Origin: an uncultured bacterium
GTDB taxonomy: Bacteria; Actinomycetota; Geothermincolia; Geothermincolales; Geothermincolaceae
Length of the DNA: 64,000 nt
Direction: 5' to 3'
Assembly: GCA_963765625.1 (NCBI GenBank)
Contig: CAVXXD010000005.1
Coordinates: 191,113 to 255,112, forward strand
In this document: positions 28,401-50,626 of the stretch, piece by piece
How the letters are laid out: each line of letters opens with the position of its first letter
Position numbering within the stretch: position 1 is the stretch's first letter
The notes under the pieces: model-generated
Told to the model about the DNA's origin: nothing
The model's input: only the letters and a program-made list of their open reading frames with translations
Database searches by the model: none
Translations under genes and position numbers: made by a program

Positions 28401-29828
28401 CACGTCGACGGCTTGTTCCACCATTCCGAAATCCACTACCTGCTCGGCGGCTTCCGCCACCAGGTCCTCCAGCTCAACGACAGGCTCTTCTACTGCAATC
28501 GGCTCCTCGACCACCGGCAGTTCCGCAACGACCGCCTCTTCCGGAACCTGCGTTTCGGCCTCTTCTTCTTCAGCCAGGACGTCCTCGGCTATCTCTTCGC
28601 TGATCTCTTCGATGCCCTCTACTTCCTCGGCTTCCTCGATCCCGATGATCTCTTCGTCGACCGGGATTTCCTCTATGAGGATCTCCCCTTCCATGTCTTC
28701 TTCGATCTCGACTTCCATTGCTTCCGCAAAGGACTCTTCCGGCTCGACGGCAACGACCTTCTCCATTGCCGGAGAGGCTTCGACGGTTTCTTCCTCGATC
28801 TCTTCGACGACTTCTTCCCCGATCTCTGCAGCAGCCTCTGGTTCGGTTTCTTCCGAAACCGGGGTCCCGACTTCGACCATCAGTTCCTGAACCTGTTCCA
28901 GCAAGGTGGTCTTGGATACCTCTCTGACCGGCTTGGTCGGCGGTGCTTCTTCAGCCGCGGTGAAGTCCACTTCAGGCTCTTCCGCTACTATGGGGGCCAG
29001 CTCTTCCTCACTGGGAGCGGGAAAGACGGGTTTCACGTCCGCCTTCTCTTCGAGCTGCATCAACTCTTCGGCCATCCGCTCCAGTTCCTGCTCCACCTTG
29101 GCGTCGGTCTTGTCGGGGGAGACGTTCTCCAGCAACCCCGAAGAGATCAGTCCGTAGACTATCTTGCAGGTCTGCAGGGTGCCCATGCCGGCCATGTCCA
29201 CGATGTCCTTGACCGTACGCTCTCCGTCCACGAAGGTGAGGACCATCCACTCCTCCGGGGTCAGGCTGATCTGCGCGGCTAGCCTCTCATTCATGGACTT
29301 CATCTTGAAGATGACGTCAAGGTCGGGGATTTTCTTCTCTATGCGGTTCCACTCGTCCAACCGGCGGGACCCCTCCATGATCAGCTCCTCGGTGCTGATG
29401 GACAGGCCGATGTCTTCCTCCGGGAAGACCACGCCGGGCTGGAATTCGAATTCGCCTTCCGTCCAGCGCAACAGTTCAAAGACGGCATCCTGGATCTGCT
29501 CCTGCACGAAAAGCTCGAGTTTGTCCTTGGTCAGATAGCCCAGGCGGATGAGCAACTGCCCCAGGCGTTGACCGCGGGCGGTGGTCCTCTGCAGTTCGAG
29601 GGCCTCGTCCACCTGTGCCTTGGTCACGATACCTACCTGCAGCAGCTTTACGCCCAGTGGCTTCCTCTTCCAGTTGGTGGTAGCGAAGAACACCTCCCCG
29701 TTCCGGAAACAGACATAGCCCCTGGCATTGCCGCGCAGCAAGTTGAGGGTTCCGTTCTTCTTGCTGAAATTGAGCAGCTGGAAGAGGTCTGGCAAGCTGA
29801 AATCCTTGAGGCTACCTTTTAAGGCCAT
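25431..29828 (-). CDS. Giant DUF4388 (PATAN-like, MglA-partner) domain protein with ~1200-aa acidic repetitive low-complexity region
   Basis: 1465 aa single ORF; N-terminal SLKDFSLPDLFQLLNFSKKNGTL...ELLRWTEGEFEF matches the DUF4388 consensus. The remainder is E/A/P/V-rich with 27-aa APPVAAAPMPEPVAPAATVPTPVPPME tandem repeats and recurrent ELDMLExLL motifs; short basic C-terminus. Confidence 0.75.
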   Translation of the reverse strand: MALKGSLKDFSLPDLFQLLNFSKKNGTLNLLRGNARGYVCFRNGEVFFATTNWKRKPLGVKLLQVGIVTKAQVDEALELQRTTARGQRLGQLLIRLGYLTKDKLELFVQEQIQDAVFELLRWTEGEFEFQPGVVFPEEDIGLSISTEELIMEGSRRLDEWNRIEKKIPDLDVIFKMKSMNERLAAQISLTPEEWMVLTFVDGERTVKDIVDMAGMGTLQTCKIVYGLISSGLLENVSPDKTDAKVEQELERMAEELMQLEEKADVKPVFPAPSEEELAPIVAEEPEVDFTAAEEAPPTKPVREVSKTTLLEQVQELMVEVGTPVSEETEPEAAAEIGEEVVEEIEEETVEASPAMEKVVAVEPEESFAEAMEVEIEEDMEGEILIEEIPVDEEIIGIEEAEEVEGIEEISEEIAEDVLAEEEEAETQVPEEAVVAELPVVEEPIAVEEPVVELEDLVAEAAEQVVDFGMVEQAVDVTALTEQAASEPLGQVEELEADMLSDVLETEEEAEAPAGVEGALEEIPLEGLGDLPGVGKKLLEEIEAEETSAISEMRGATLEDSQEAVAEIKLGEKEEELNILKEKIISLLPEGMGLGEKEEEAPGADAAAGEKQPPSYHHKSITEESIEAQAAKRAYLEKRYGKIGKLADQESPAEMEPEEIPMEWSGHLDRISHRHEAEDDLVGGLPSGKAEIGVPGGRGIDPTKILGAAFRGGEQGEEEGENVYGENVVSLKRPTGSISIEKLVEELGPDMAESLRDRMGDTEASVAMAERTSRDYGTGTIEDEEALEGTGIAEGHPRAAGFTSTRDPIELLEEEMLEDVGEEAEPLEPAVAAPASVTEEAEQAGAEKAKAPVIDDTFLRIEELEMDMLEGVIEEDLVELETAADAATRLEEVTEPMEEARVPVEVGATAAGAPSESLSIKELEDDMLVDYEAGEAISGAAPAVEEAEEKVARLPEELEGLEGLEDDLAALEKELFSGEEIALEEDILTDIEEIEKSLAEEETAEEVPEPAVVLEESEPAAPAVTGPSETEMMEQFMEAAEVTEEAPERAVVFEEPEPAAQPSELDMLEHLMGAPEVAEAPSAPTVSPEPSPYAAPAPYDMDMLEHLLEAPETVEEETPVATGPQPSELDMLERIIDMPEAVEEAEAPTAPQAGELDMLENLLGATETVEEAPAPAAPQTTEMELELLERSLEAPPVAAAPMPEPVAPAATVPTPVPAMEAPPVAAAPMPEPELEAPPVAAAPMPEPVAPAATVPTPVPPMEAPPVAAAPMPEPVAPAATVPTPVPPMEAPPVAAAPRPEPVAPAATVPTPVPPIEAPPVAAAPRPTAAPRAVARPSAAAGAPPTANIPEVKEDVVPKTLEEPQVAATASPAMEQALEFEEAAPGGQKSYDTGSFSLERELAELTGAGAPQPTKKIKIPVKPGTPVKEGESPMQEMAKGKPVPKVKRDKTVTKGIIVRIIDGIKKL
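25864..26260 (-). repeat. 81-bp tandem repeat array (4 full + 1 partial + degenerate units) inside the giant gene
   Basis: Unit gcagcggccacaggcggggcctccatgggcggcacgggcgtgggtacggtggcggcgggcgctacgggctccggcataggc repeats at 25864, 25945, 26026, 26152; 45-bp partial unit at 26107. Confidence 0.85.
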
Positions 29829-35557: not shown

Positions 35558-35971
35558 TCATCCCCTTTCCGAGCGCAAGTACGCCTCCAGCAGGAGCGCT
35601 GCGGCGGCGCTGTCCATTTTGACGCGCGCGCCCCGTCCCGACGTTCCCGCTTCCCGCAGGCGTCGAGCGGCTTCGGTGCTGGTGTAACGTTCGTCTACGA
35701 AGGTCACTTTGACACCGGGAAGCCCTTCGAGACAGGCAGCATAGTCCCGCACCCAGCCTGCCTGCTGGCCTTCCTGCCCCTTCAGGGTATAGGGCATGCC
35801 GACGACAACTTCGTCCACGCCCTCGAGGGCGATGAGTTGTTCCAGGTAGGCACGGAGACCGGGGGGGTCGGTGCCGGTCAGCACCTCCAGGGGAGAGGCC
35901 AGTATGCCCAGGGGGTCGGTGATGGCCACCCCGATGCGCTTGCTCCCCAGGTCCAGGCCGACCTTACGCAT
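35558..35971 (-). CDS. ruvX: Holliday junction resolvase-like protein RuvX/YqgF
   Basis: 137 aa; GLDLGSKRIGVAITD RNase H-like motif. Confidence 0.88.
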   Translation of the reverse strand: MRKVGLDLGSKRIGVAITDPLGILASPLEVLTGTDPPGLRAYLEQLIALEGVDEVVVGMPYTLKGQEGQQAGWVRDYAACLEGLPGVKVTFVDERYTSTEAARRLREAGTSGRGARVKMDSAAAALLLEAYLRSERG

Positions 35972-38612
35972 CTCCAGCGGCGAGTACCGCGGCGGCCGCC
36001 TGCGTCACCTTCTCTAGCGCTTCATCGATGCCTTCGCGGCGGGTGCCGCCGCCCACCGCCATGTGCGGCTTACCGCCGCCACTGCCCCCCAGGGAGGCGG
36101 AACCGGTTTTCACCAGATCCCCCGCCTTCAACCCCGACGCTACCAGTTCCTTCGATACCGCCACCACCATGTCGATCTTTTCACCTTCGGCGACCAGTGC
36201 GACCACGCCGGGCTTGATCCTTTCGAGGGCCCGGTCCGCCAGGTCACGCAGGAGGTCCTTGGGGACCCCGCCGGCCCGCGCCGTGAGGATAGTGGCCTTG
36301 CCGTCCGTCCATCGGCCGCCCTTTTCCAGCACTTCCTCCAGGACGCCGGACAGGGCCTGCACCGAACTCTTCTCAATTTCCTTCTCCAACTCACGCTGGT
36401 GCTGGAGGAGTTTTTCCAGGCGGGACAGTACCTGCCCGCTATCCGCCTTGATCAGGCCGGAAACGCCGTCCAGTACCGCGGCCGTCTCTTTGACCCGGAG
36501 GTAGGCGGCCGTCCCGGTGACGGCCTCCAGGCGGCGGAGGTTGGCCCCCACGCTGCCTTCGGAGGTGAAGAGACAGAGGCCGATCTCGCCAGTGCGGCCG
36601 ACATGGGTGCCGCCACACAGTTCGCGGCTGAGTTCGTCCACCTCCACCACGCGCACCTGGTCCTCGTACTTCTCCCCGAAGAGAGCGACGGCGTCGATGC
36701 TCCGGGCGTAGTCATAGGTGGTGATATAGGCGCGCACGGGGTAGTCGGCGATGATCATGCGGTTGACCCGGGCTTCCATATCACTCAACTCTTCCGGGGT
36801 GGGCTGGGCGTAGTGGGTAAAGTCGAAGCGCAGGTGCTCCGGGTCGACCAGGGAACCCGCCTGGCGGGCGTGTTCCCCCAGCACTTCTCGCAGCGCCCTG
36901 TGGATAAGGTGAGTGGCGGTGTGGTTGCGCCGGATGGCGTCGCGGCGTTCCTCGTCCACCTCCACGCAGACTTCCTGTTCAGGCTCCAGGACACCGCGGA
37001 CCACGCGCCCACGGTGTACGGTGAGGCCCTTGACGGGGTGCTGGGCGTCGGTGACCTCCACCTCCACCCGGTCCGATGAAAACTTTCCGTGATCGCCTAC
37101 CTGGCCACCCATCTCCCCGTAGAAGGGGGTGCGGTCCAGGACCACTTCCACTTCCTCGCCCTGGGCGGCGGAAGAGACGAAGCGGTCCCTGACGATGACC
37201 GCCTTGACGCGGGCGTTCTCCGCTGTCACCTGGTAGCCGTCGAAGAGGGTGGTGCCGAAGTTGTCCAGCACCTCGAGGTAGACTTCCTTCTCGGCCACGG
37301 AGTAGCCTTCTTCCACCCTGGCCTGGCGGGCCCGCTCCTTCTGCTGGCGCATCAGCCCGGTAAAGCCTTCCTCGTCCAGGCTGAAGCCCTGCTCCAGAGC
37401 TATCTCCCGTGTCAGCTCCAGGGGGAACCCCAGGGTGTCGTGGAGGTGAAAGACTATCTCTCCCGGCACGGCCGCCGCGCCGTCTTCTTTTAAAGAAGAC
37501 AGGGAGTCCTCGAGGTAGGAGAGCCCGCCGCGCAGGGTCTCGAGAAAACGCTCTTCCTCGCTTCGGACCATACTGACGATGAAGGCCCGGTTGCGTTTGA
37601 GATCGGGGTAGGCCTCGCCCATCAGCTCGACGACAGCCTCCACCATCTCCGGCAGGAAGACCTTGTCCGCCCCCAGGCTCCGCCCGTGGCGAACGGCCCG
37701 GCGGATGATGCGGCGCAGGATGTAACCTCGCTCCTCGTTGGAGGGAAGGACGCCGTCGCTGATAAGGAAAGTCATGGCCCGGGCATGGTCGGCCACGATA
37801 CGCAGGGAGGTGTCGGTGGTGGCGTCCCTGCCGTAGGCCGTCCCGGCCAGGCCGGCCATGCGATCCATGAGCGAACGGAGCTGGTCCGTCTCGAAATTAT
37901 TGGGCACTCCCTGCAGGACCGAGGCCACCCGCTCCAGGCCCATGCCGGTATCGATGTTTTTTCTGGGCAGGGGGGTCAGGCCGCCCTGCTGATCACGGTC
38001 ATACTGCATGAAGACCAGGTTCCAGAGCTCCAGGTAGCGATCGCAGTCGCAGCCGGGCGCGCACTCAGGGCGTCCGCAGCCGGCCTCGGGGCCCTGGTCG
38101 TAGAGTATCTCGGAACAGGGGCCGCAGGGGCCGGTCTCCCCCATGTCCCAGAAGTTGTCTTCCTTACCCAGCTTGACGACACGGTCGGCGGGAACGCCCA
38201 CCTCGTCGCGCCAGATGGCCAGCGCCTCGTCGTCCTCCTCGTAGACGGTGAAGTAGAGGCGCTCCAGGGGGAGGCCCAGTTCGCCCACCAGGAAGTCGTA
38301 GGCGAAACGAGCGGCTTCGCTTTTGTAATAGTCGCCGAAGCTGAAGTTGCCCAGCATCTCGAAGAAGGTCAGGTGGCGCGCGGTATGGCCCACGCGGTCG
38401 ATGTCAGTGGTGCGCACGCATTTCTGGGCCGAGGTGGCACGGGTGAACTCCGGGGTCAGTTCTCCCAGGAAATAGGGCTTGAACTGGACCATGCCCGCGG
38501 TGGTCAGCAGGAGGGTGGGGTCGTCGGGGATGAGGGAGGAACTCTCCACCACCCGGCACCCCCGCTCCGCGAAGAACTCCAGGAACCTGCGCTTGATGTC
38601 GTCGCTCTTCAA
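35964..38612 (-). CDS. alaS: Alanine--tRNA ligase
   Basis: 882 aa; class II aaRS motifs, editing HxxxH, C-terminal DHHA1 GGGKPHMAVGGG. Confidence 0.95.
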   Translation of the reverse strand: MKSDDIKRRFLEFFAERGCRVVESSSLIPDDPTLLLTTAGMVQFKPYFLGELTPEFTRATSAQKCVRTTDIDRVGHTARHLTFFEMLGNFSFGDYYKSEAARFAYDFLVGELGLPLERLYFTVYEEDDEALAIWRDEVGVPADRVVKLGKEDNFWDMGETGPCGPCSEILYDQGPEAGCGRPECAPGCDCDRYLELWNLVFMQYDRDQQGGLTPLPRKNIDTGMGLERVASVLQGVPNNFETDQLRSLMDRMAGLAGTAYGRDATTDTSLRIVADHARAMTFLISDGVLPSNEERGYILRRIIRRAVRHGRSLGADKVFLPEMVEAVVELMGEAYPDLKRNRAFIVSMVRSEEERFLETLRGGLSYLEDSLSSLKEDGAAAVPGEIVFHLHDTLGFPLELTREIALEQGFSLDEEGFTGLMRQQKERARQARVEEGYSVAEKEVYLEVLDNFGTTLFDGYQVTAENARVKAVIVRDRFVSSAAQGEEVEVVLDRTPFYGEMGGQVGDHGKFSSDRVEVEVTDAQHPVKGLTVHRGRVVRGVLEPEQEVCVEVDEERRDAIRRNHTATHLIHRALREVLGEHARQAGSLVDPEHLRFDFTHYAQPTPEELSDMEARVNRMIIADYPVRAYITTYDYARSIDAVALFGEKYEDQVRVVEVDELSRELCGGTHVGRTGEIGLCLFTSEGSVGANLRRLEAVTGTAAYLRVKETAAVLDGVSGLIKADSGQVLSRLEKLLQHQRELEKEIEKSSVQALSGVLEEVLEKGGRWTDGKATILTARAGGVPKDLLRDLADRALERIKPGVVALVAEGEKIDMVVAVSKELVASGLKAGDLVKTGSASLGGSGGGKPHMAVGGGTRREGIDEALEKVTQAAAAVLAAGDA

Positions 38613-38702
38613 CTGTGTATTCCTCCAAATTTAAAGGGGTTCCGGCCCGCGCCGGAACCCCACTATTCTAGCATACGGATAAATGTAGATGGCCGGGCGG
38701 TT

Positions 38703-39122
38703 TTACTCCGCGGCCTCCTCCGCCGCGGGTGCCGCGGCCTCCACCGCTTCTTCTTCCTCCTTTTTCCCGCCGGGAGAGATGGCCTTCTGGATGCCCGCGC
38801 CCACCCCGATTATTTTCACCACGGGTGAGGAAACCACCTGCTGGGCCAACTTGGTCATGGAGTTAACGCGGTTGGTGATGGACTCCCCGGTGGACACCAC
38901 CCGCTCGACCATCTCCAACTCGGTGTTGACGTGGTCCATGGTGGTCTGGAAGCGCGTCATCAGCGGGATGGTCTGCTTGCGTACGTCGTCCAGGAAGTTA
39001 TTGGTGATGGAGAGGGTCTTGGCCAGCTTGAGCATGACCCATGTGGCTGTGAGCATGAACAGGGTAAAAGAAATTGCGATGGCCAGCCAGGTGATGGCAC
39101 CTGCCACAGTAACTCCGAGCAT
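38703..39122 (-). CDS. DUF948 family membrane protein
   Basis: 139 aa; N-terminal TM + coiled-coil pattern typical of DUF948; acidic Ala/Glu C-terminus. Confidence 0.55.
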   Translation of the reverse strand: MLGVTVAGAITWLAIAISFTLFMLTATWVMLKLAKTLSITNNFLDDVRKQTIPLMTRFQTTMDHVNTELEMVERVVSTGESITNRVNSMTKLAQQVVSSPVVKIIGVGAGIQKAISPGGKKEEEEAVEAAAPAAEEAAE

Positions 39123-39160
39123 CGAACTACCTCCCTTGCCTTGAAAAGATCGGGGGCCCG

Positions 39161-39532
39161 TTATTCGCCCTTCCTGGAGCGGTAATCCTCGATGGCGGCA
39201 CGTATGCCGTCCGCTGCCAGGTTGGAGCAGTGCATCTTCTCGGGGGGCAGCCCGCCCAGGGCTTCCGCCACCGTGGAGTTGGTGATCTCCAGGGCTTCGT
39301 CCAGGGTTTTACCTATGACCATCTCCGTCCCCATGGAACCCGAAGCCACCGCCGCCGTGCACCCGAAGGTCTTGAACTTCACATCGGCCAGGCAGTCATC
39401 CTGTACCTTGATGGATATACGGATCATGTCGCCGCAGACGGGGTTGCCGATCTCGCCGATCCCGTCGGCGTCCTCAATCTCCCCCACGTTGCGAGGATTT
39501 TTAAAATGGTCGATCACTGCATCACTATACAT
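39161..39532 (-). CDS. Fe-S cluster assembly scaffold NifU/IscU-like
   Basis: 123 aa; conserved Cys ligands (GNPVCGD, FGCTAAVAS, HCSNLA). Confidence 0.85.
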   Translation of the reverse strand: MYSDAVIDHFKNPRNVGEIEDADGIGEIGNPVCGDMIRISIKVQDDCLADVKFKTFGCTAAVASGSMGTEMVIGKTLDEALEITNSTVAEALGGLPPEKMHCSNLAADGIRAAIEDYRSRKGE

Positions 39533-39564
39533 GCATCAAAACATATCAAACGGCCTGTTGGGTG

Positions 39565-40875
39565 TCAATGAAGCAGGCGGCGCCATTTCTCGGTCATGGC
39601 CGCTTCCTGCCCGTTCTCCGAGGACTCGTAGAAGACCTTGCCCCGCAGGTTCTCCGGCAGATAAGCCTGCTCCACGTAATGGCCCGGATAGTTGTGCGGG
39701 TAGAGGTAGCCCGCGCCGTGGCCGAGCTCCTCCGCCCCGCTATAGTTGGATCCGCGCAGATGGAGAGGGACGGTAGCGACCTCCCCCTGTTTGACCTCGC
39801 GCATGGCCAGGCCCAGGGCTACGGTGGTGGAGTTACTTTTGGGAGCGAGGGCCAGGTAGGTGGTGGCGTGGGCCAGGTTGAGCTGGGCCTCGGGCAGGCC
39901 GACGAACTCCACCGCCCGGGCCGCCGCATCCGCCACCAGCAGAGCCCGGCTGTCGGCCAGCCCCACGTCCTCGGAAGCGAAGATGACCATCCGGCGGGCG
40001 ATGAAACGGGCGTCCTCCCCGGCATAGAGCATGCGGGCCAGCCAGTAGAGGGCTGCCTGGGGGTCGGAGCCGCGCATGGATTTGATGAAGGCGGAGATGG
40101 TGTCGTAGTGGTTGTCCCCCCACTTGTCGTAGAGGAGGGCTTTGCGCTGGGCCGCCTCTTCGGCAACTTCCAGGGTGATACGGCCGCATTTCCCTTCCCG
40201 GGCCAGGAAGGCGGCTGCCTCCAGGGTGTTCAGGGCCACCCGGGCGTCTCCCCCGGACAGGTCGATCATGTGCTCGAAGGCGTCGTCGTCCACCTCGAGG
40301 TGGAGGTCCCCCAGCCCCCTCTCGCTGTCGGTGAGGGCTGAGCGCAGTACCCGCGCCAGGTCTTCTTTTGAAAGAGATTCCAGCCGGAAGATCTTGGAGC
40401 GGGAAACCAGGGCCGGGTTGACCTCGAAATAGGGGTTCTCGGTGGTGGCGCCGATGAGGACGATGATGCCGTCCTCCACCGCGGGAAGGAGGGCGTCCTG
40501 CTGGGCTTTGTTGAAGCGGTGTATCTCGTCGATGAAGAGGATGGTGCGGGTGGTGTACATGGACTTGCGCTCCGCCGCCTCGGCGATGACTTTGCGCACG
40601 TCCGCCACCCCGCTGGTCACCGCCGAGAGTTGCTGGAAATGGGCGCGGGTAAGGTTGGCGACGATGCGCGCCAGGGTGGTCTTCCCCGTGCCGGGAGGAC
40701 CCCAGAAGATGGCAGTCCGCAGCATGTCCGCCTCTATGGCGTTGCGCAGGAAGGTGCCCTCCCCCACCACGGCCTGCTGACCCGCGAATTCGTCCAGGGT
40801 GCGGGGGCGCATGCGCACGGCCAGGGGGGCGTCGCGCTTTATCGATTCCTCGAGGTTGTTCTCGAAAAGGTCCAT
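39565..40875 (-). CDS. rarA: Replication-associated recombination protein A (RarA/MgsA AAA+ ATPase)
   Basis: 436 aa; Walker [14 protein letters not shown], MgsA helical lid and C-terminal domains. Confidence 0.9.
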
Positions 40876-41219
40876 TTCTTTTCTTCTCTCATCATTACCG
40901 GGGGGTGTTCGTGTCTTATTTCATTACACCGCCAGGCGACGACAAAACCCTTTTCTCGCGGCTTTGTCAACGGCTATCAAGCCTGCATGTGGAGTGATAG
41001 TATGATGGAGAGAAGTTTGAAAAAGGCTCTGCCTTGTACGTTATTCCCTGTGATTATCTTTGAGCCAACACCTTGAACAAGCGGGACCGGAATCCGCGAG
41101 TGGACGTAATGCCCCCGCCCGGGTGGGGGACCACGGAAGCGAGTGGCAGGTCCCCACCTGCTTTTAAAGCAGGTTCAAAGATAACGGAGGAGACGGCAAG
41201 GCGGAGTTTTGCTTTGGGG

Positions 41220-44204
41220 TCAGGGAGAGTAGCCGATGGAGTCGTGGGCCCAGGACCTGCCATTGCCGTAGACGGCCCGCTCGCAGATGACCGCCCCGCT
41301 CGCTTCCACCCGGGTGGAGACGTCCCAGTCGGTGACGTAGTCGTTGGCCTTGAAGGTGCGGCGGCTTCCGGCGGGAATGATGGCGTCCCGCGGCCCGGTC
41401 TGCTCACCCGCCGAAGTCATGAAGGTGAGGTTCGCGCTCACCTCGGTGTCCCCGGGGTTCTGGACCAGGATGAAGGTCTCGAAGTCCCCGCCGGTGCAGC
41501 CTTCGGCCAGATACCAGTCCCGCGCTGCCCACGCCGCCCCTATCGATTCGTGCGCCCAGGTACGGTCGTTGCCGTACATGGCCCGCTCGCAAACCACCGC
41601 TCCGCTAGTCGCGGTAACGCGGGTGGAGACGTTGTAGGTGGCAACGTAGTCGTTCACCCTCAAGGTCACGCGAGATCCCTTCGCGACGTTCAAACCTTGC
41701 AGGGTTAACGGCGCCACTTCTCCATTATCAGTCTGAAAAACAACGTCCACGACGGCATCGGTTCTGGGGTCGGGAGCCTGTATGAGGACGTAAGTCTCCA
41801 TGCCCCCGTCAGTCGAACCTTCCGCCAGGTACCATTCCCTGGCGGCTTGCGTCGTCCCGATGCTGTCATGCGCCCATACGCCTCCCGGCCCGTACATGGC
41901 CCGCTCGCAGACCACCGGCAAGCCCGCCGCCATGACCGTGGTGGAGACATTGTAGTCGGTCACATAGTCGTTGAGCCTGAACGAGCGGCGGGAATTGGCG
42001 GGGACCTGGTCATCGACTGCGATGTATTCCGAAGAAGTGCCCAGTGCCAGTATTACGTCGACCGCTTCCGCATTGGGATTCTGCACCAGTATCCAGGTCT
42101 CCATGCCTCCATCGGTACATCCTTCGGCGAAGTTCCAGCCGATGGACGGGACGGTCACCCCGATGGAGTCGTGGGCCCAGGACCTGCCATTGCCGTAGAC
42201 GGCCCGCTCGCAGATGACCGCCCCGCTCGCTTCCACCCGGGTGGAGACGTCCCAGTCGGTGACGTAGTCGTTGGCCTTGAAGGTGCGGCGGCTTCCGGCG
42301 GGAATGATGGCGTCCCGCGGCCCGGTCTGCTCACCCGCCGAAGTCATGAAGGTGAGGTTCGCGCTCACCTCGGTGTCCCCGGGGTTCTGGACCAGGATGA
42401 AGGTCTCGAAGTCCCCGCCGGTGCAGCCTTCGGCCAGGTACCAGGTGGTTGGCTCTATCGTGAATGCTCCCGGCAGAGTGGCTGCCTGGCCGTCGGGATT
42501 GGTGACCACCACGTCCCAGGCCCCCGGCGCGGCACCGGCGAGGTCGAAGGCGCAGTTGACCCGGGTGGGCGAGGCCACCGTCACGCCCGTCGCCACTACG
42601 TCCGGCTGGCCGGATTTTCTCAAGATGACTACCGGAACGCCCCCCACGTCGAAGAAGCCTGTGCCGGCCAGGTCGGTGATGCCGACAACGGTCCCGTTCG
42701 GAGCGGCTACGGGGGTGATGCCGGTCACCGTGGGCGCCTGCCGGGAGACCCGCTGAGCGTAGATGTCGGACCTGGAACCGGAGCGAAGGTCTTCCCAGGC
42801 GACTATGGCACCTCCGGCGCCGTCGGCGGCCATGTTCACCGAGAACTGGTCATCGACGGCGCCACAGACCACCAGGCCGCTCGCGGGCCAGTTCGGGTAG
42901 AGCGTCCCATCGGCCAGCACCCGCTGGGCGTAGATATCGTAGTTGGGTGCAGGGCGGTCATCTTCCCAGACGATGATGGCACCGCCGGAACCGTCGGATG
43001 CTATGTCGGGGGCATACTGGTTGCTGGCGGCGTCGCAGACCGCGCGTCCGTTCGCCGGCCAGGCCGGGTCCACCGTCCCTCCCGCCAGCAACCGCTGGGC
43101 ATACACGTCATAGTTGCCCGAACGTTTGTCCCTCCAGGTGATGACGGCTCCCGTGGAGCCATCGGATGTAATACGGGGTCCGGACTGCTCATCGGCGGTG
43201 TCACAGACAGCCCGCCCGTTAACCGGCCAGGCCGGGTCCACCGTGCCACTCGCGAGCACTCGCTGGGCGTAGACGTCGGGGTTGGGGCCTGAGCGATGGT
43301 CCTCCCAGGTGATGATGGCGCCGCCGGAGCCGTCCGGGATCATCCGTGGTCCGAACTGACCGTTCGCCGCTATGCACACCGCCCGCCCGTTAACCGGCCA
43401 GGCCGGGTCCACCGTGCCACTCGCGAGCACTCGCTGGGCGTAGATGTCGTCACCAAGCATGGAGCGTCCGTCCTCGTAGGCGATGATGGCGCCGCCGGAA
43501 CCATCCGGGGTTATCCGGGGGTTACCCTGGCCGTTGGGCAGGGCGGTGCAGACCGCCAGGCCGTTGGCGGGCCAGGCTGGGTCCACCGTGCCGCTCGCGA
43601 GCACCCTCTGGGCGTAGATATTGTAGTTGGTGGTAGAGCGGCGGTCCGGCCAGGTGATGATGGCGCCGCCCAGGCCGTCGGAAGCCAATTGAGGACCGTT
43701 CTGGTAATCGGGGTCGGTGCAGACGGACAGGCCGTTAGCGGGCCAGGCCGGGTCCACCGTCCCGTTGGCGAGCACCCGCTGAGCATAGATATCGGGGATG
43801 CCCGCCCGGTTGTCATCCCAGGTGATGATGGCTCCGCCCGAGCCGTCAGCTATTATCTGGGGGCTGCCCGCATCGCCCGAGAGGCCGCTGCCGCGGACCT
43901 CCACTCCGTTGGCAGTCCAGGCCGGGTCCACCGTCCCGTTGGCGAGCACCCGTTGAGCGTAGATATCCGACTGGCCGTTGCGCTTATCCGCCCAGGTGAT
44001 GATGGCCCCGCCGGAGCCGTCCGAGAGTACCCGGTGTGAATACGCGTCCCCGATGAGACCGGTGCCCCGCACCTCTATGCCGTCGGCGGTCCATCTTACC
44101 CCGGCCGGGCAGGCCGTTGCCAGCACCAGCATCAGTAACACCAGCACCATCACTGGTAGTATTTTACGAATATAACTGTGGCTCGCGTTGGTTGATAGCC
44201 TCAT
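41220..44204 (-). CDS. Secreted multi-repeat surface protein: signal peptide + 8 x ~55-aa beta-propeller-like repeats + IPT/TIG-like domain + 4 x ~93-aa C-terminal repeat modules
   Basis: ~994 aa from ATG 44204 (MRLSTNASHSYIRKILPVMVLVLLMLVLATA), GGAGG SD. N-terminal YAQRVLA.GTVDPAWPANG..VC repeats; C-terminal WYLAEGCTGGDFETFILVQNP...WAHDSIG modules. Confidence 0.6.
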   Translation of the reverse strand: MRLSTNASHSYIRKILPVMVLVLLMLVLATACPAGVRWTADGIEVRGTGLIGDAYSHRVLSDGSGGAIITWADKRNGQSDIYAQRVLANGTVDPAWTANGVEVRGSGLSGDAGSPQIIADGSGGAIITWDDNRAGIPDIYAQRVLANGTVDPAWPANGLSVCTDPDYQNGPQLASDGLGGAIITWPDRRSTTNYNIYAQRVLASGTVDPAWPANGLAVCTALPNGQGNPRITPDGSGGAIIAYEDGRSMLGDDIYAQRVLASGTVDPAWPVNGRAVCIAANGQFGPRMIPDGSGGAIITWEDHRSGPNPDVYAQRVLASGTVDPAWPVNGRAVCDTADEQSGPRITSDGSTGAVITWRDKRSGNYDVYAQRLLAGGTVDPAWPANGRAVCDAASNQYAPDIASDGSGGAIIVWEDDRPAPNYDIYAQRVLADGTLYPNWPASGLVVCGAVDDQFSVNMAADGAGGAIVAWEDLRSGSRSDIYAQRVSRQAPTVTGITPVAAPNGTVVGITDLAGTGFFDVGGVPVVILRKSGQPDVVATGVTVASPTRVNCAFDLAGAAPGAWDVVVTNPDGQAATLPGAFTIEPTTWYLAEGCTGGDFETFILVQNPGDTEVSANLTFMTSAGEQTGPRDAIIPAGSRRTFKANDYVTDWDVSTRVEASGAVICERAVYGNGRSWAHDSIGVTVPSIGWNFAEGCTDGGMETWILVQNPNAEAVDVILALGTSSEYIAVDDQVPANSRRSFRLNDYVTDYNVSTTVMAAGLPVVCERAMYGPGGVWAHDSIGTTQAAREWYLAEGSTDGGMETYVLIQAPDPRTDAVVDVVFQTDNGEVAPLTLQGLNVAKGSRVTLRVNDYVATYNVSTRVTATSGAVVCERAMYGNDRTWAHESIGAAWAARDWYLAEGCTGGDFETFILVQNPGDTEVSANLTFMTSAGEQTGPRDAIIPAGSRRTFKANDYVTDWDVSTRVEASGAVICERAVYGNGRSWAHDSIGYSP
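41234..41511 (-). repeat. 278-bp perfect direct repeat, copy A (inside the repeat-protein gene)
   Basis: Identical to 42162-42439; encodes an identical ~93-aa module. Confidence 0.85.
42162..42439 (-). repeat. 278-bp perfect direct repeat, copy B
   Basis: Identical to 41234-41511. Confidence 0.85.
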
Positions 44205-44273
44205 AGCCTCCCCCTTCGGCTTCGGCAGAAACGGCGCCATATGTCCTGATTCTAACACCAGGACCATCGTTAT

Positions 44274-46031
44274 CTATAAAATCTTGAGGTGGAGTTCGCG
44301 CATCTGCTGCGGGTAGAGCACGTCGGGGGCGCCGGTGAGCAGGCAGGCGCCCGACTGGGTCTTGGGAAAAGCGATGACGTCGCGGATGTTGTCCCGGCCG
44401 GCCAGCAGCATCACCAGGCGGTCCAGCCCGAAGGCCAGCCCGCCGTGGGGCGGCGCGCCGAACTCAAGGGCCTCGAGCAGGTGTCCGAACTTCTCCCGCG
44501 CCTCCGCCTCGTCTAAGCCCAGCAGTTTGAAGATGCGCTCCTGCACGTCGCGGCGGTGGATACGGATACTTCCGCCTCCCACCTCGTTGCCGTTCATCAC
44601 CAGGTCGTAGGAGTCGGAGAGGGCCGCGGTGGGGTCCTCTTCCAGCTTGTCCAGGAACTCGGGTGAGGGGCTGGTAAAGGGGTGGTGGTTGGACTTGTAG
44701 CGCTTTTCCTCCTCGTCCCACTCAAAGAGGGGGAAATCCACCACCCAGAGGAAGGACCATTCCGTCGAGGGCTCGAGGGAGAACTTCTCCACACAGTGCT
44801 TGCGCAGCCGTGCCAGCCATTCGGAGGTCTTGCGGAAATTGCCCACCATCAGCAGGCCGACGTCCCCGGTTTCCAGGGCCAGGGCCTCACGGAGCGCGGC
44901 TTTCTCTCCGTCCGAGAAGAACTTGGCCATGGGCGATCGCAGTTCCGTGCCTTGGTCCGCGACCACCCAGATGAGGCCGGAGGCACCCAGGCCCTTGGCG
45001 TAGTCCACCAGTTCGTCCAGGACCTTGCGGGAGGGCGCCTTGGCCCCCTCCACCTTGAAGCCCCGGATGAGTTCGCCGGCGGCCAGGGCCGACTGGAAGA
45101 GCTGCACGCCGCTCTGGTCGAAGACAGCGGTCAGGTCTGAGATGAGCATGCCGTAGCGGGGGTCGGGGCGATCGTCGCCGTAGAGTTCCATGGAACGCTG
45201 CCAGGTGATGCGCTCGATGGGCAGGGGGAGTTCCTCTCCCTTGACCTCTCGGAAGAGGTGGGCGAACATCCCCTCCATGCAGGAGATAACGTCGCCTGCG
45301 TCGACGAAGGACATCTCCAGGTCGATCTGGGTGAACTCGGGCTGCCGGTCGGCCCGCAGGTCCTCGTCACGAAAGCACTTTACGATCTGGTAGTAACGGT
45401 CGTATCCGGCTACCATCAGCAGCTGCTTGTACAGCTGAGGAGACTGGGGAAGGGCGTAGAAATGACCGGCCTGCAGGCGGGAGGGAACCACGAAGTCGCG
45501 GGCGCCTTCCGGGGTGCTCTTGCCCAGCACCGGTGTCTCGATGTCGATGAAGCCCTCGCCGTCGAGGTAGTTGCGGACGGCGCGGGTCACCGCGGCGCGC
45601 AGCATCATAACCTGCTGCATCTCGGGGCGGCGCAGGTCCAGGAAACGGTGGCGCAGGCGCACGGATTCGTCCACCCCGACGCCGTCCAGGATCTCGAAGG
45701 GCGGGGTGCGGGATTCGGAGAGCACCTCCACCTCCGACACCCACAGCTCGACTGAGCCGGTGCCCAGGTTGGGGTTGACCGCGTCGGCCGGACGCGCCTT
45801 GACTTCGCCGCGGCACGCCAGCACGTACTCGCCGCGCACGCCGTGAGCCATGCCGTGCGCCGTCTCGCTGGCCGCGGGATTGAAGACCACCTGCACCAGC
45901 CCGGTGCGGTCGCGCAGGTCGATAAAGATGACCCCACCGTGATCGCGCCTGGTGTGGACCCAGCCGCAGACCGTTACTTCCTGCCCGGTATGATCGGAGC
46001 GCAGTTCCCCGCACATCAGTGTTCTTTTCAT
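44274..46031 (-). CDS. aspS: Aspartate--tRNA ligase
   Basis: 585 aa; OB-fold N-terminus, class II motifs (FRDEDLRADRQPEFTQID, GGGSIRIH). Confidence 0.95.
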   Translation of the reverse strand: MKRTLMCGELRSDHTGQEVTVCGWVHTRRDHGGVIFIDLRDRTGLVQVVFNPAASETAHGMAHGVRGEYVLACRGEVKARPADAVNPNLGTGSVELWVSEVEVLSESRTPPFEILDGVGVDESVRLRHRFLDLRRPEMQQVMMLRAAVTRAVRNYLDGEGFIDIETPVLGKSTPEGARDFVVPSRLQAGHFYALPQSPQLYKQLLMVAGYDRYYQIVKCFRDEDLRADRQPEFTQIDLEMSFVDAGDVISCMEGMFAHLFREVKGEELPLPIERITWQRSMELYGDDRPDPRYGMLISDLTAVFDQSGVQLFQSALAAGELIRGFKVEGAKAPSRKVLDELVDYAKGLGASGLIWVVADQGTELRSPMAKFFSDGEKAALREALALETGDVGLLMVGNFRKTSEWLARLRKHCVEKFSLEPSTEWSFLWVVDFPLFEWDEEEKRYKSNHHPFTSPSPEFLDKLEEDPTAALSDSYDLVMNGNEVGGGSIRIHRRDVQERIFKLLGLDEAEAREKFGHLLEALEFGAPPHGGLAFGLDRLVMLLAGRDNIRDVIAFPKTQSGACLLTGAPDVLYPQQMRELHLKIL

Positions 46032-46068
46032 GATCGGATCTTTCTCGCTAATCTTGCTACGTACTTCC

Positions 46069-47307
46069 CTACATTATATGGTCCCACAAGGACTCGTGGG
46101 AGACCTGCTCCTGGCTCGAGGACACCATGTCGCGAACACTGTAGAACCCGCTGGCCAGTTCGTCCTCACCGATCACCACTACCCAGCGGTAACCGGAACG
46201 GTCCGCCGCCTTCATCTGTGCTTTGACGCTTCGCTCCAGGCTGTCGAGCTCCGCCGGCAGGCCGCGCCGGTGGGCTTCCTCCAGCAGGGCGAAAGCGCGG
46301 TGCCGGGGCTCACCGGGCATGGCTACTATGTAAGCGCCCTCGAGGGTCTCTTCTTCTTCCTTCTCGAGATGCTCCACCACACGCTCGATGCCGATGGAGA
46401 ATCCGGTGGAGGGGGTGTCTTTGCCGCCGTAGGAAGCGATGAGATCGTTGTAGCGCCCGCCAGCCGCCAGGGTGTTCTGAGCGCCCTCGCCGGGGCGTTG
46501 GAATTCGAAGACGGTGCGGGTATAGTAGTCGAGGCCGCGCACCAGCCCGGGCTCCAAGGTGTAGTCCACTCCGGCCATGTCCAGATAACCCCGGAGGTCC
46601 TCCAGGTGCTCACGGCATGCTTCGCAAAGGTGCCCGGTGATACGGGGGGCGTCCCCGATGGCCTTGCGGCAGGCCTCCACCTTGCAGTCGAAGATGCGAA
46701 GGGGATTGACCTCCAGGCGCCGCTTGCAGTCACCGCAGAGATCTCCGCTGATGCCCGAGAAATAGTCGCGCAGGGCCGCGACGTAGGCGGGGCGACACTC
46801 GCGGTCTCCGACGCTGTTGACCAGGAGCCTGAGGTCCCCGATACCCAGTTGCTTGAAGAAGCGGTCGCAGAGAGCGATGACCTCGGCGTCGGCCACGGCC
46901 TGGGCGCTGCCGATGAGCTCCACGCCCAGCTGATGGAACTGGCGGTAGCGGCCGGCCTGGGGACGTTCGTGCCTGAACATGGGCCCGTGGTAATAGAGTT
47001 TCACGGGCAGGCCCCGCTCGGCCAGGTTGTGTTCGACGAAGGCGCGCGCCACTCCCGCCGTGGCTTCCGGCCGCAGGGTCAGGGAGCGGCCCCCTTTGTC
47101 TTCGAAGGTAAACATCTCCTTGGAGACGATGTCGGAGCCTTCGCCTATGCCGCGGACGAAGACCTCGGTGGCCTCCATAACCGGCAGGATGATCTCGCGA
47201 AAGCCATATAACCGGAAGAGTTCCTGCGCCGTGCCCATGACCCGGCGCCAGGCCTCACTCTCGGGGGGGAGTACGTCCTTGATCCCCTTGGGCGCCGACC
47301 ACTTCAC
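46069..47307 (-). CDS. hisS: Histidine--tRNA ligase
   Basis: 412 aa; HisRS motifs (YHGPMFRHERPQAGRYRQFHQ). Confidence 0.92.
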   Translation of the reverse strand: MKWSAPKGIKDVLPPESEAWRRVMGTAQELFRLYGFREIILPVMEATEVFVRGIGEGSDIVSKEMFTFEDKGGRSLTLRPEATAGVARAFVEHNLAERGLPVKLYYHGPMFRHERPQAGRYRQFHQLGVELIGSAQAVADAEVIALCDRFFKQLGIGDLRLLVNSVGDRECRPAYVAALRDYFSGISGDLCGDCKRRLEVNPLRIFDCKVEACRKAIGDAPRITGHLCEACREHLEDLRGYLDMAGVDYTLEPGLVRGLDYYTRTVFEFQRPGEGAQNTLAAGGRYNDLIASYGGKDTPSTGFSIGIERVVEHLEKEEEETLEGAYIVAMPGEPRHRAFALLEEAHRRGLPAELDSLERSVKAQMKAADRSGYRWVVVIGEDELASGFYSVRDMVSSSQEQVSHESLWDHIM

Positions 47308-47951
47308 GACAGCCTCCTGCGGTCCAGCCCCACCAGGTAGGGATTGCTCTTCTTCTCCTTGCCCAGGGTGGTCTCCGGACCGTGCCCGGGATGGATGACG
47401 GTGTCGGGGGGCATGTCCCAGACTTTTTCGTAAACTGCGTCCAGCAAGGCCTCCAGTGAACCGCCGCGTAGGTCGGTCCGGCCGATGGAACCTTCGAAGA
47501 TGAAGTCGCCGCAGAAGAGATGGCCGGGCAGGTGGAACGATACGCCACCCGGGGTGTGGCCGGGCGTGTAAAGCGTCTTCAGCACCAGCTGCCCTACCAT
47601 GAACTCGTCACCTTCCTGTAGTTCCTGCACTTCCCGGGGGCGGTTGGGTATGACCCCGGCCTGCAACCCCAGCAGGAGGTGCCGGCGACTGGCCACCCCG
47701 CTCGCGTCCAGCGGGTGTATGAAGACAGGCGCCCCGGTGGATTCGGACAGGGACCCGGCCCCGGCAGCGTGGTCGGCATGGCCGTGGGTGAGCAGGATGG
47801 CCTTGAGCTTGAGGTCGTGCTCCCGCAAGGCCGCGGATATCCTCTTCACTTCACCCGCCGGGTCGATGACCACAGACTCTCCGCCCGGCGTGTCCGCCAG
47901 GACGTAGCAATTGGTCTCGAGCATGCCCAGCACCAGGCGCTTTAATATCAC
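47304..47951 (-). CDS. MBL-fold metallo-hydrolase (glyoxalase II-like)
   Basis: 215 aa; THGHADHAAG metal-binding motif. Confidence 0.75.
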   Translation of the reverse strand: MILKRLVLGMLETNCYVLADTPGGESVVIDPAGEVKRISAALREHDLKLKAILLTHGHADHAAGAGSLSESTGAPVFIHPLDASGVASRRHLLLGLQAGVIPNRPREVQELQEGDEFMVGQLVLKTLYTPGHTPGGVSFHLPGHLFCGDFIFEGSIGRTDLRGGSLEALLDAVYEKVWDMPPDTVIHPGHGPETTLGKEKKSNPYLVGLDRRRLS

Positions 47952-47985
47952 TTTTTCCTCCGTTCACCGTCCGGGTTCTGGATAA

Positions 47986-48447
47986 TTATAAACCAACCCC
48001 CGGTTGCTGTCTGCTGTCGAGCATGAGGGTGACCGGGCCGTCGTTGACCAGCTCCACCCGCATGTGGGCGCCGAAAACACCGGCCGCGGGCTCGAGCCCT
48101 CGTTCGCGCAGCTTCTCCAGGAAGAGCAGGTAGAAGGGTTCCGATTTTTCCGCCGGGGCCGCCCGGACATAGCTGGGGCGGCGGCCTTTGCGGGCATCGC
48201 CGTACAGGGTGAACTGTGACACCACCATGATCTCGCCTTCCACGTCGGCCAGGGAGAGGTTCATCTTCCCCTCGCCGTCTCCGAAAACGCGGAGGGAGAG
48301 TATCTTTTCGACCATCCAATCCAGGTCTCTCTCTTCATCTTCGACGGAGACCCCCAGCAGTACCAGCAGCCCCGGCCCGATGCGGGAGATCTCTTCCCCG
48401 TCCACCGCGACGGTACTATTACTTACACGTTGTAATAATGCTCGCAT
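47986..48447 (-). CDS. dtd: D-aminoacyl-tRNA deacylase
   Basis: ~153 aa from ATG 48447 (MRALLQRV...) with GAAGGAG SD; SQFTLYGD motif. The ORF-track upstream extension overlaps rel and is rejected. Confidence 0.85.
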   Translation of the reverse strand: MRALLQRVSNSTVAVDGEEISRIGPGLLVLLGVSVEDEERDLDWMVEKILSLRVFGDGEGKMNLSLADVEGEIMVVSQFTLYGDARKGRRPSYVRAAPAEKSEPFYLLFLEKLRERGLEPAAGVFGAHMRVELVNDGPVTLMLDSRQQPGVGL

Positions 48448-48460
48448 GGGCGCTCCTTCG

Positions 48461-50626
48461 TCACTTGGAGGGGATAACGCGGTAGGCACTGAAGATGTTC
48501 TCGATCTTGGTGATGTTGCGCAGGATGTCTTCCAGGTGTGCGATATTGCCCAGCTCGAAGGTGAAGCGGCTGATGGAGAGGCCCTCCCGGTTAATGGTCA
48601 TGGTGGCGGAGATGATGTTGACGTGGAACTCCCCCATCACCGTGGTGATGTCGCGCAGCAGGCGCGGCCGGTCCATGGCCTCGACCTTGATCTCCACCTG
48701 GAAGGTGGTGGACTGCGCCGCATCCCAGCTGACGTCGATCTCGCGGTAGTCCTGCTCGCGCATGTGCATGGCATTGGGGCAGTCGCCGCGGTGTACGCTC
48801 ACCCCGCTGCCGCGGGTGACAAATCCGACGATCTGGTCGGGAGGGACGGGGTTGCAGCAGCGCGCGATGCGCACCAGCACGTTTTCCACTTCCTCCACCT
48901 TGACCCCGCGGCTGAAGGCGGGGAGCTTGTGGGGCAGGATGGGCTTGGACGGCTGCGGCTCCTCCACCTCTTCCGGCAGAAGCCGGGAGCCGATGCGGGC
49001 CGAGACCTGTATGGGGGAGGTCTTGCCCGCCCCGATACTGGCCAGGAGATCGTCTGTGGAGAGGAAGTTGTAATCGTCTTTGGCCACTTCCCCCAGGAGG
49101 CCGCCGGTAAAGACCTTCTGCAGGGGCAGGTGAGCCTTGCGCAGGGCCTTCTGGAGCATCTCACGGCCCTCCGCCGCATCCTCCACCTTGCGATCCCGGC
49201 TGAACCACTGGCGGATCTTGGTCCTTGCCCGGGGGGAGACAGCTATTTTCATCCAGTCCTGGGAGGGGCCGGTGGAGGTCTTGGAGGTGATGATCTGGAC
49301 GATGTCGCCGTTGTTGAGCTGGTATTCCAGGGAGACGATGCGATCGTTGACCTTCGCTCCCACCAGGGCGTGACCTACCTCGGTATGGATGGCGTAGGCG
49401 AAGTCGATGGGGGTGGAACCACGCGGCAGGGTAACCACGTCCCCCTTGGGGGTAAAGACGAAGACCTCCGCCTGGAAGAGGTCCATCTTCAGGCCCTCCA
49501 TGAACTCCCGGGGGTCGCGCAGGTCGCTCTGCCACTCCAGTATACCCTTGAGCCAGCCGAGCCTCTCCTTGATCTGGTCACGCGAGCGCTGGGTCTCCTT
49601 GTACTTCCAATGGGCGGCGATGCCGTATTCCGCCGTGCGGTGCATCTCCTCGGTGCGTATCTGTATCTCCAGGGGGCGCCCTTGCGGCCCCACCACCGTG
49701 GTGTGCAGGGACTGGTACATGTTGAACTTGGGCATGGCGATGTAGTCCTTGAACCGCCCGGGCAGGGGTTTCCAGAGGGCATGGGCCACCCCCAGCACCG
49801 CGTAGCAATCCTTGACGTTGCGGGTTATCACCCTCACCGCGAAAAGGTCGTAGATCTCGTCGAACTCCAGTCCGCTGGTTATCATCTTGTTGTAGATGCT
49901 GTAGAAATGCTTGACCCGGCCGCTGATCTCCGCATCGATCTTTAAGGACTTGAGCTGCTTCTGGAGGTTCTCGGCAACTTCCTTGACGTAGGCCTCCCGC
50001 TCCGGCCGCCGCTGATTGACCATCTGCTGGATCTCCTGGTAACGCAGTGGGAAGAGGGTGGCGAAGGCCAGGTCCTCGAGCTGCCAACGTAACTGGGTGA
50101 TACCCAGGCGGTGGGCGATGGGGGCATAGATGTCCAGGGTCTCGCGCGCCTTCTGCCGCTGCTTCTCCTCCGACAGGTGATATATAGTGCGCATGTTGTG
50201 CAGGCGGTCAGCCAGTTTTATAAGGATGACCCGGGTGTCCTCGGCCATGGCCACGAAGAGTTTGCGCAGGGTCTCGGCCTGGGCCGCCTCCCTGCTCTCG
50301 AAGTTGATCTGCTCCAGCTTGGTGACCCCGTCGATGATGGAGGCGACCTCCTCGCCGAAGAGCTCGCGGACATCGTCCAGACCCGCGCTGGTGTCCTCCA
50401 CCACGTCGTGCAGGAGGGCCGCAGCGATGGTGATGGAGTCCAGGTGAAGGTCGGCCAGAGTCATGGCCACCTCCAGGGGGTGCTGGATGAAGTCCTCGCC
50501 ACTGTAGCGGTACTGGTTCTGGTGATGAGTGCTGGCGTACTCGAAGGCCTCCTTTATCAGTCGGAGGTCACCTTTGCTGTCGTATGACTTGACCTTGCCG
50601 GTAAGGCTCTCGATGGTCTGGGGCAC
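48461..50626 (-). CDS. rel: Bifunctional (p)ppGpp synthetase/hydrolase Rel
   Basis: 721 aa; HD hydrolase, synthetase, TGS and ACT domains. Confidence 0.92.
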   Translation of the reverse strand: MPQTIESLTGKVKSYDSKGDLRLIKEAFEYASTHHQNQYRYSGEDFIQHPLEVAMTLADLHLDSITIAAALLHDVVEDTSAGLDDVRELFGEEVASIIDGVTKLEQINFESREAAQAETLRKLFVAMAEDTRVILIKLADRLHNMRTIYHLSEEKQRQKARETLDIYAPIAHRLGITQLRWQLEDLAFATLFPLRYQEIQQMVNQRRPEREAYVKEVAENLQKQLKSLKIDAEISGRVKHFYSIYNKMITSGLEFDEIYDLFAVRVITRNVKDCYAVLGVAHALWKPLPGRFKDYIAMPKFNMYQSLHTTVVGPQGRPLEIQIRTEEMHRTAEYGIAAHWKYKETQRSRDQIKERLGWLKGILEWQSDLRDPREFMEGLKMDLFQAEVFVFTPKGDVVTLPRGSTPIDFAYAIHTEVGHALVGAKVNDRIVSLEYQLNNGDIVQIITSKTSTGPSQDWMKIAVSPRARTKIRQWFSRDRKVEDAAEGREMLQKALRKAHLPLQKVFTGGLLGEVAKDDYNFLSTDDLLASIGAGKTSPIQVSARIGSRLLPEEVEEPQPSKPILPHKLPAFSRGVKVEEVENVLVRIARCCNPVPPDQIVGFVTRGSGVSVHRGDCPNAMHMREQDYREIDVSWDAAQSTTFQVEIKVEAMDRPRLLRDITTVMGEFHVNIISATMTINREGLSISRFTFELGNIAHLEDILRNITKIENIFSAYRVIPSK

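Follow-up and report, generated by a model that had tools for sequence, protein, structure and literature searches.

The ASRAH superfamily, as described by de Souza, Iyer and Aravind (2009; PMC2739507), comprises solo intracellular ASRT-like tetramers together with secreted tetrads and dyads. TM1070 and ASRT are homotetramers, and the dimer interface forms part of the wall of their ligand cleft. The secreted ASRAH domains come as dyads or tetrads, the tetrads being fused to N-acetylmuramoyl-L-alanine amidase in Chloroflexi and the dyads occurring in actinobacterial lipoproteins (PMC2739507). Sugar binding was predicted for all groups; the hallmarks are a Trp that opens strand 1 and a near-invariant Asn that closes strand 2, and loss of the His/Cys signature of the solo family was foreseen for the other families (PMC2739507). 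The stretch analyzed here (the window; 64,000 nt, positions 191,113 to 255,112 of contig CAVXXD010000005.1, GCA_963765625.1) carries, between aspS and rarA, a gene whose 994-amino-acid (aa) product ends in four such modules. This protein is a new domain architecture inside a known, curated and experimentally uncharacterized superfamily, and the gene is an intact one for a secreted cell-surface protein of a probable Geothermincolia-type actinobacterium. Its features, in window coordinates, are as follows.

41220–44204, minus strand: complete gene, 994 aa plus stop codon (41220–41222), from the list of open reading frames (ORFs)
44112–44204, minus strand: putative signal peptide, aa 1–31, read from the translation
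42747–44099, minus strand: eight-bladed beta-propeller, aa 36–486, built of ~57-aa 'DGxGGAIxxWxDxR...DIYAQRV' repeats
42450–42737, minus strand: IPT/TIG-like beta-sandwich spacer, aa 490–585, weakly assigned
42138–42443, minus strand: ASRAH/DUF5719 module 1, aa 588–689
41835–42137, minus strand: ASRAH/DUF5719 module 2, aa 690–790 (Pfam, module hidden Markov model (HMM), AlphaFold2 (AF2) model)
41517–41834, minus strand: ASRAH/DUF5719 module 3, aa 791–896 (same three sources)
41223–41516, minus strand: ASRAH/DUF5719 module 4, aa 897–994, the C-terminus of the protein (same three sources)

Domain architecture

The C-terminal modules, which in the initial annotation did not look like a common annotated domain, are Pfam DUF5719 (PF18986) and belong to the published ASRAH/ASRT superfamily. 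When the 409-aa C-terminal region was scanned alone, DUF5719 matched in four stretches at 46.8 bits against a gathering cut-off of 26.2, each module aligning to approximately positions 48–132 of the model. The count of four modules held, with lengths of 98–106 aa in place of the ~93 aa first proposed. In an hmmscan of the full 994 aa, DUF5719 was unreported even at E ≤ 1; repeat-rich long proteins can mask real domain matches. Precomputed PF18986 assignments were present on all 120 listed homologues (the 120 best matches to the C-terminal region), some of which are named 'DUF5719 family protein' in public records. The Pfam model has 319 positions and no assigned function, and describes neither the four-module unit nor the architecture of the window protein.

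An AF2 model of the 409-aa tetrad had a mean local confidence (pLDDT) of 97.2 and a predicted template modeling score (pTM) of 0.93. A Foldseek comparison, which had been suggested as a check, returned probability 1.00 for TM1070 and ASRT only, so that the predicted fold of the modules is a beta-sandwich of TM1070/ASRT type. At the sequence level, a tetrad profile run against the PDB matched ASRT alone, and weakly (E 0.8), with VQN aligned to ILN, and a search of the PDB with the whole protein sequence gave no match. Among the homologues, P0033 (41.3 bits) and P0319 (26.9 bits) reached Pfam ASRT (cut-off 25), and the window protein stayed below the PF07100 threshold in both the whole-protein and the C-terminal scan.

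Across 94 sequences, the hallmark Trp (W3, W105, W206 and W312) and Asn (N22, N124, N225 and N331) were invariant or at least 90% conserved. Each module also has conserved Glu, Thr, Arg and Tyr positions (E7, T10, E15, T16, R54, E81, R82 and Y85). Modules 1, 2 and 4 of the window protein have both the Trp of W[YN][LF]AEG and the Asn of (V/I)QNP; in module 3, IQAP replaces QNP and the strand-2 Asn is missing. Strand 2 reads FETFILVQN in place of the SHEshChhN signature with its His and Cys. No other ASRAH modules were found within the 64-kb window.

Among described systems, the secreted amidase-associated tetrads are alike in their four tandem modules, their Trp and Asn hallmarks and their predicted sugar or peptidoglycan ligand, and close relatives of the window tetrad do carry N-acetylmuramoyl-L-alanine amidase. 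That family, however, was described as invariably fused to amidase and as mainly from Chloroflexi (PMC2739507), whereas the window tetrad follows a propeller and a TIG-like domain, no amidase domain was detected in the window protein by Pfam and NCBIfam scans, and the window lineage joins the tetrad to many partners besides amidase. The solo ASRT-like proteins (PF07100) are tetramers, matching the fixed count of four, but they are single-domain, intracellular, ~14-kDa homotetramers, and the window protein, multi-domain and with a signal peptide, shares only 14–20% sequence identity with them and does not keep SHEshChhN, which places it outside that family.

The N-terminal part of the protein, annotated from the start as a secreted multi-repeat protein with a likely propeller of eight repeats, bore this description out in both unit count and model. 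Seven full YAQR-initiated units measure 56–58 aa each, slightly more than the ~55 aa first given, and the first blade is finished by the terminal YAQRV strand (aa 482), a velcro closure of the ring. In the AF2 model, eight four-stranded blades were predicted in a closed ring with pLDDT 93–98. Named propeller repeat families remained below their curated cut-offs (TIGR04275 beta_prop_Msarc, 51.1 against 85; TIGR02608 delta-60, 34.3 against 76.5; Pfam DUF5122, 22.3 against 27). Pfam and NCBIfam scans of the whole protein reported sub-threshold propeller repeats only, and no Pfam model spans the propeller.

Propeller relatives are very numerous, with at least 7854 among the 8000 candidates scored. 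The typical relative is a protein of ~580 aa from Eisenbacteria- or Krumholzibacteria-type bins, with a C-terminal FlgD_ig or type IX secretion system (T9SS) sorting domain. These 'DIYAQR' proteins of Eisenbacteria, Krumholzibacteria and similar bins are secreted surface proteins too, and are 42–59% identical across 75% or more of the query length, mostly near all of it. They end in the FlgD Ig-like or T9SS domain, whereas the window protein ends in a TIG-like domain and an ASRAH tetrad. Since FlgD_ig/T9SS occupies the position of the tetrad on the same propeller, the same head would seem to be mounted on different surface-retention devices in different envelope types.

Two relatives are encoded at locus L081 (GCA_936416865.1). 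Protein P0131 (L081:9170-12274, CAKYSJ010000016.1) has a propeller 89% identical to that of the window protein, followed directly by four modules and without the TIG-like segment. Its gene call starts at an internal Met; upstream of this, another frame encodes the signal peptide and the first blades, which points to a frameshift or a sequencing error. Still further upstream, the end of another module is present as a fragment (…GNDRTWGTDSIGYAP*). The product of the gene after P0131 is 978 aa long, matches the window protein in its full architecture and is 51% identical to it. Neither aspS nor rarA is part of the L081 locus, which carries AbiEi/AbiEii genes and one for a DDE transposase.

The IPT/TIG-like domain proposed between propeller and tetrad was weakly supported. 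A two-sequence profile of aa 490–585 had as its top PDB match, in a full-length alignment, the Sec5 Ral-binding domain (E 0.16, weak), a domain with the IPT fold. Against this, Pfam gave no match to the segment at E up to 10, PF01833 included, and AF2 confidence over it was low (pLDDT 37–60), although beta-strands were predicted. The segment is 58% identical to its counterpart in the 978-aa L081 protein and had no BLASTP match among the 120 tetrad homologues.

The signal peptide proposed for this protein could likewise be read from the sequence, without a dedicated predictor: a basic n-region (R2, R13, K14), the hydrophobic ILPVMVLVLLMLVLA at aa 15–29, then A-T-A and Cys32. It would be a Sec signal peptide, which signal peptidase I could cleave, or signal peptidase II if the site serves as a lipobox. 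The PROSITE lipobox rule is a permissive pattern with Cys directly after the hydrophobic region, and L-A-T-A-C32 matches it. The 89%-identical P0131 has A-A-L-C. Lipidation is nevertheless uncertain, because Cys32 is absent from the full-length 978-aa relative.

Module number and the role of the tetrad

By the module HMM, almost every one of the 120 best homologues has four modules in tandem, neither more nor fewer, and those that deviate are N-terminally truncated calls. A HMMER search with the tetrad profile against 1.84 billion cluster representatives recovered 8982 proteins at E ≤ 0.001, of which 3871 at E ≤ 1e-30. The 135 best new representatives from this profile search contained four modules in 118 cases, eight in 7, three in 6 and five to seven in 4, so that the search for homologues with variable repeat counts, already proposed at the annotation stage, returned four as the canonical number. 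Uninterrupted runs of modules had a length of 4 in 127 cases and of 8 in 4, and the tetrad stood at the C-terminus in 115 of the 127. The modules thus come in fours, the solo proteins are homotetramers, and the pTM of 0.93 requires that the modules keep a fixed arrangement relative to one another; from these three points we infer that the tetrad is a single-chain pseudo-tetramer of TM1070/ASRT type with ring-like packing.

The proteins that carry the tetrad are diverse. By Pfam, Peptidase_M23 is fused to it in ~20 of the 120 best homologues and Amidase_3 in 5, the latter in P0003, P0008 and P0032 among other close relatives. Other partners, likewise by Pfam, are an M99/AstE-like carboxypeptidase, Beta-lactamase2, S8 protease, DUF362, TIG, Big_7, propellers of the BNR, Vgb_lyase and RCC1 types, and a GH116-like enzyme that also has malectin. 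Signal-peptide-like N-termini were present in 159 of 250 relatives by a crude filter, most negatives being visibly truncated calls. Source names on the tetrad homologues, on which alone the taxon of the host is judged here, were Candidatus Geothermincolia, Anoxymicrobiaceae (a family within the class Geothermincolia) and Actinomycetota/Actinobacteria.

These associations argue for an anchoring role, because the fusion partners of the tetrad include enzymes of four kinds that typically act on peptidoglycan (M23, Amidase_3, M99/AstE-like and Beta-lactamase2) and also because it has unrelated partners, a mostly C-terminal position and secreted relatives, and is exchanged with FlgD_ig/T9SS domains. 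The surface-attachment role that the initial annotation had raised for the C-terminal modules fits these partner domains. With moderate confidence, the protein may be viewed as a secreted propeller protein, anchored to wall glycan by its ASRAH tetrad, whose modules are homogenized by conversion. Its Sec signal peptide would export it, the eight-bladed 'DIYAQR' propeller would be the functional head and the TIG-like sandwich a spacer. The four ASRAH (DUF5719) beta-sandwiches would fold into one compact unit, a single-chain version of the TM1070/ASRT homotetramer. The clefts of this unit are predicted to bind a polymer of the host's own wall that contains sugar, either peptidoglycan or a glycan attached to it, and this binding would hold the protein on the cell surface, as SLH, LysM and CWB2 modules do elsewhere. 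Very recent intragenic gene conversion would account for a 278-nt identity between two of the modules, and structural constraint would fix their count at four.

Like the tetrad, the SLH, LysM, CWB2 and SH3b wall-binding modules are repeated, non-catalytic and terminal, and are common to wall hydrolases and unrelated surface proteins; the working analogy draws on the established knowledge of those families. It would be one of role, however, since the tetrad has no sequence or fold kinship with SLH, LysM, CWB2 or SH3b, and none of these was detected by domain scans of the window protein.

Several points weigh against wall anchoring by a closed pseudo-tetramer. In our literature searches no paper mentions DUF5719, the only one on ASRAH was the 2009 paper (PMC2739507), and no ligand of a secreted ASRAH/DUF5719 domain has ever been shown experimentally. 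The literature search for Geothermincolia gave no match on the envelope. As FETFILVQN replaces the ligand His/Cys of TM1070, the ligand may differ. Model scores alone do not separate a closed ring from a rigid rod. A four-module query favors matches with at least four modules, although this bias does not account for eight modules being commoner than five to seven. Finally, one partner is glycoside-hydrolase-like with a malectin domain, which would fit a substrate-binding module too.

This last point leads to the alternative that the tetrad is a substrate-targeting carbohydrate-binding module, steering the propeller or the enzymes to an external polysaccharide or glycoconjugate. The prediction of de Souza et al. 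(PMC2739507) concerns sugar binding in general and would be satisfied by such a module, as would the one representative that pairs the tetrad with a GH116-like catalytic region and malectin. No glycoside hydrolase, however, is among the partners listed for the 120 best homologues, where M23 occurs ~20 times and Amidase_3 five times, and a range of partners as unrelated as proteases, beta-lactamase-like proteins, DUF362 and propellers suits generic retention better. Substrate targeting is therefore judged rather unlikely, with the proviso that for wall hydrolases substrate and anchor are the same polymer, so that these partners do not separate the two roles.

A role in self-association, in which the tetrad would build a surface layer or an oligomeric scaffold through protein–protein contacts and without a glycan ligand, appears quite improbable. 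Solo ASRAH proteins do oligomerize (PMC2739507), ASRT has non-sugar partners (rhodopsin and DNA) according to the literature, and homologue P0089 matched the S-layer protein Slr4 weakly, below the cut-off (19.9 bits against 25). A single-chain tetrad, however, would already fill its tetramer interfaces and has no obvious drive to assemble further; fusions with peptidoglycan hydrolases are better explained by wall binding, and no S-layer family reached threshold in the domain scans.

The perfect repeat between modules 1 and 4

An exact-match scan located two copies of a 278-nt sequence within the gene.

42160–42437, no strand assigned: copy A, inside module 1 (exact-match scan at offset 927; repeat family D2)
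41233–41510, no strand assigned: copy B, inside module 4 (exact-match scan; repeat search)

The perfect 278-bp duplication recorded initially is therefore real in the assembled sequence, but the intervals given for it, 41234–41511 and 42162–42439, mismatch each other at 197 of 278 positions. The offset of 927 nt corresponds to 309 codons and is in frame, and tolerating a single synonymous Tyr mismatch (TAT/TAC) extends the identity to 285 nt. The repeat covers aa 588–682 and aa 897–991, so that in modules 1 and 4 alike it starts at the first Trp and ends at the last Gly. The other module pairs are far less alike (~67–72% identity over a 64-nt segment and 50–56% in protein), and this makes modules 1 and 4 a clear outlier that is not due to chance.

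The identity is best read as very recent intragenic gene conversion. Conversion is a more apt description than duplication because the module count is unchanged at the canonical four; of the very recent duplication or concerted evolution proposed earlier, recent copying or concerted evolution thus stands, and an added duplication does not. Both ends of the identity fall on module edges, and each end is marked by a synonymous difference. Position-specific HMMs scored 142–149 bits for all positions and did not tell the direction of copying between modules 1 and 4.

Homogenization of modules recurs across the ASRAH tetrad family, and a perfect repeat is a recurrent trait of it. Module pairs are 99–100% identical in protein in P0008, P0022, P0027, P0032 and P0012, and 87–92% identical in P0096, P0001, P0003, P0002 and P0010. 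All four 303-nt modules of the amidase P0032 (L082:6145-7353, GCA_936416865.1, CAKYSJ010000009.1) are 98–99% identical in DNA, a far more extreme homogenization than in the window gene.

An assembly or polishing artefact, in which the reads of one module built the other or the true count is not four, is very improbable: the gene and its neighbors are known from a single contig with no independent assembly found, and an exact repeat of 278 nt exceeds typical assembly k-mers so that the path rests on read pairing, but alternative traversals of the repeat would yield 1, 7 or 10 modules where four is the canonical count of the family, assemblers tend to collapse exact repeats rather than make them, the reading frame is intact, near-identical modules (adjacent tandem ones included) occur in independent assemblies too, and an identity with ends of the kind described above is what a conversion tract would leave. 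The concern that module number here is assembly-sensitive is weakened accordingly, four being canonical across the family. For genome curation, a perfect intragenic repeat of this kind is a normal family trait and no sign of a broken assembly.

The gene in its setting, and its meaning

The minus-strand ORF is intact, as had been presumed, and extends over 41220–44267 when counted from the first ATG. The ATG at 44204 is the likely start, giving 994 aa, and this exact form is the version in the public protein collection. There it forms a cluster of one at 90% identity, and a single 460,508-bp contig carries it. Two candidate signals lie upstream.

44207–44216, minus strand: Shine-Dalgarno-like AAGGGGGAGG, just 5' of the ATG at 44204 (sequence read)
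44249–44276, minus strand: promoter-like TAGATA-16-TAGAAT with TG, immediately past the aspS stop codon (consensus scan)

The promoter-like site is a consensus match only, with 1 found against 0.6 expected in shuffled sequence. On the 3' side, an intergenic stretch of 344 nt (40876–41219) separates the gene from the 5' side of rarA. It contains two short hairpins, ACCTGCTT-TAAA-AGCAGGT near 41172–41154 and CCCCCACCCGGGCGGGGG near 41130–41113, both without a T-tract, and a simple terminator scan called neither of them.

The order in the window is hisS-aspS-[gene]-rarA-iscU-...-alaS. In a synteny set drawn from a RarA search of genome contigs, whose best relative was 60% identical and which hence reports on broad synteny only, hisS-aspS-rarA was kept in 11 of 80 rarA loci (Actinomycetota, Bacillota and unclassified bins). 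The gap between aspS and rarA was 79 nt in L041 and 109 nt in L080, 0.5–1.6 kb in six loci and 2.3–3.7 kb in L004 and L001. The long gaps held unrelated genes, none with ASRAH modules. Of the insertion between genes adjacent in a conserved backbone, as first proposed, the adjacency is seen in L041 and L080 among the 11 loci; the insertion as a recent foreign one is not supported. GC content was 0.60–0.685 in the gene and 0.62–0.67 in the flanks, and recent horizontal insertion was rejected, the gene matching its flanks and the slot varying among relatives. The gene thus occupies a variable slot of a conserved backbone, and nothing in its sequence or setting marks it as recently acquired.

More broadly, 35964–48489 reads dtd, an MBL-fold (metallo-beta-lactamase) hydrolase, hisS, aspS, the present gene, rarA, iscU and, further on, alaS. 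The Bacillus subtilis region relA-dtd-hisS-aspS-...-rarA-...-alaS is similar, and the comparison suggests an old Terrabacteria-wide backbone. Between iscU and alaS lies an ORF of 139 aa (38703–39122, minus strand) whose product has a membrane helix at its N-terminus. In two actinobacterial loci, L005 and L041, homologues with 34% identity occupy the same place, between rarA and alaS, and the ORF is possibly a small gene conserved as part of the backbone. The largest ORF of the window (25431–29828, minus strand, 1465 aa) has no ASRAH module.

The protein itself is fairly ordinary, a known module type on a propeller with a recently copied module. The fold it carries is widespread, 8982 clusters at 50% identity matching the tetrad profile. 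Tentatively, the ASRAH/DUF5719 tetrad might be a general and unrecognized wall-anchoring device of Geothermincolia-type actinobacteria and their relatives, a pseudo-tetramer with up to four glycan-binding clefts. If so, units of four or eight modules would be in use across thousands of secreted proteins, wall hydrolases, proteases and propellers among them, with conversion keeping the modules alike, and the tetrad would be a new class of wall-targeting module beside SLH, LysM and CWB2. The packaging in fours, the fusions to peptidoglycan enzymes and the exchange with T9SS domains together provide a testable idea of how proteins may be attached to the surface in an uncultured class of actinobacteria.

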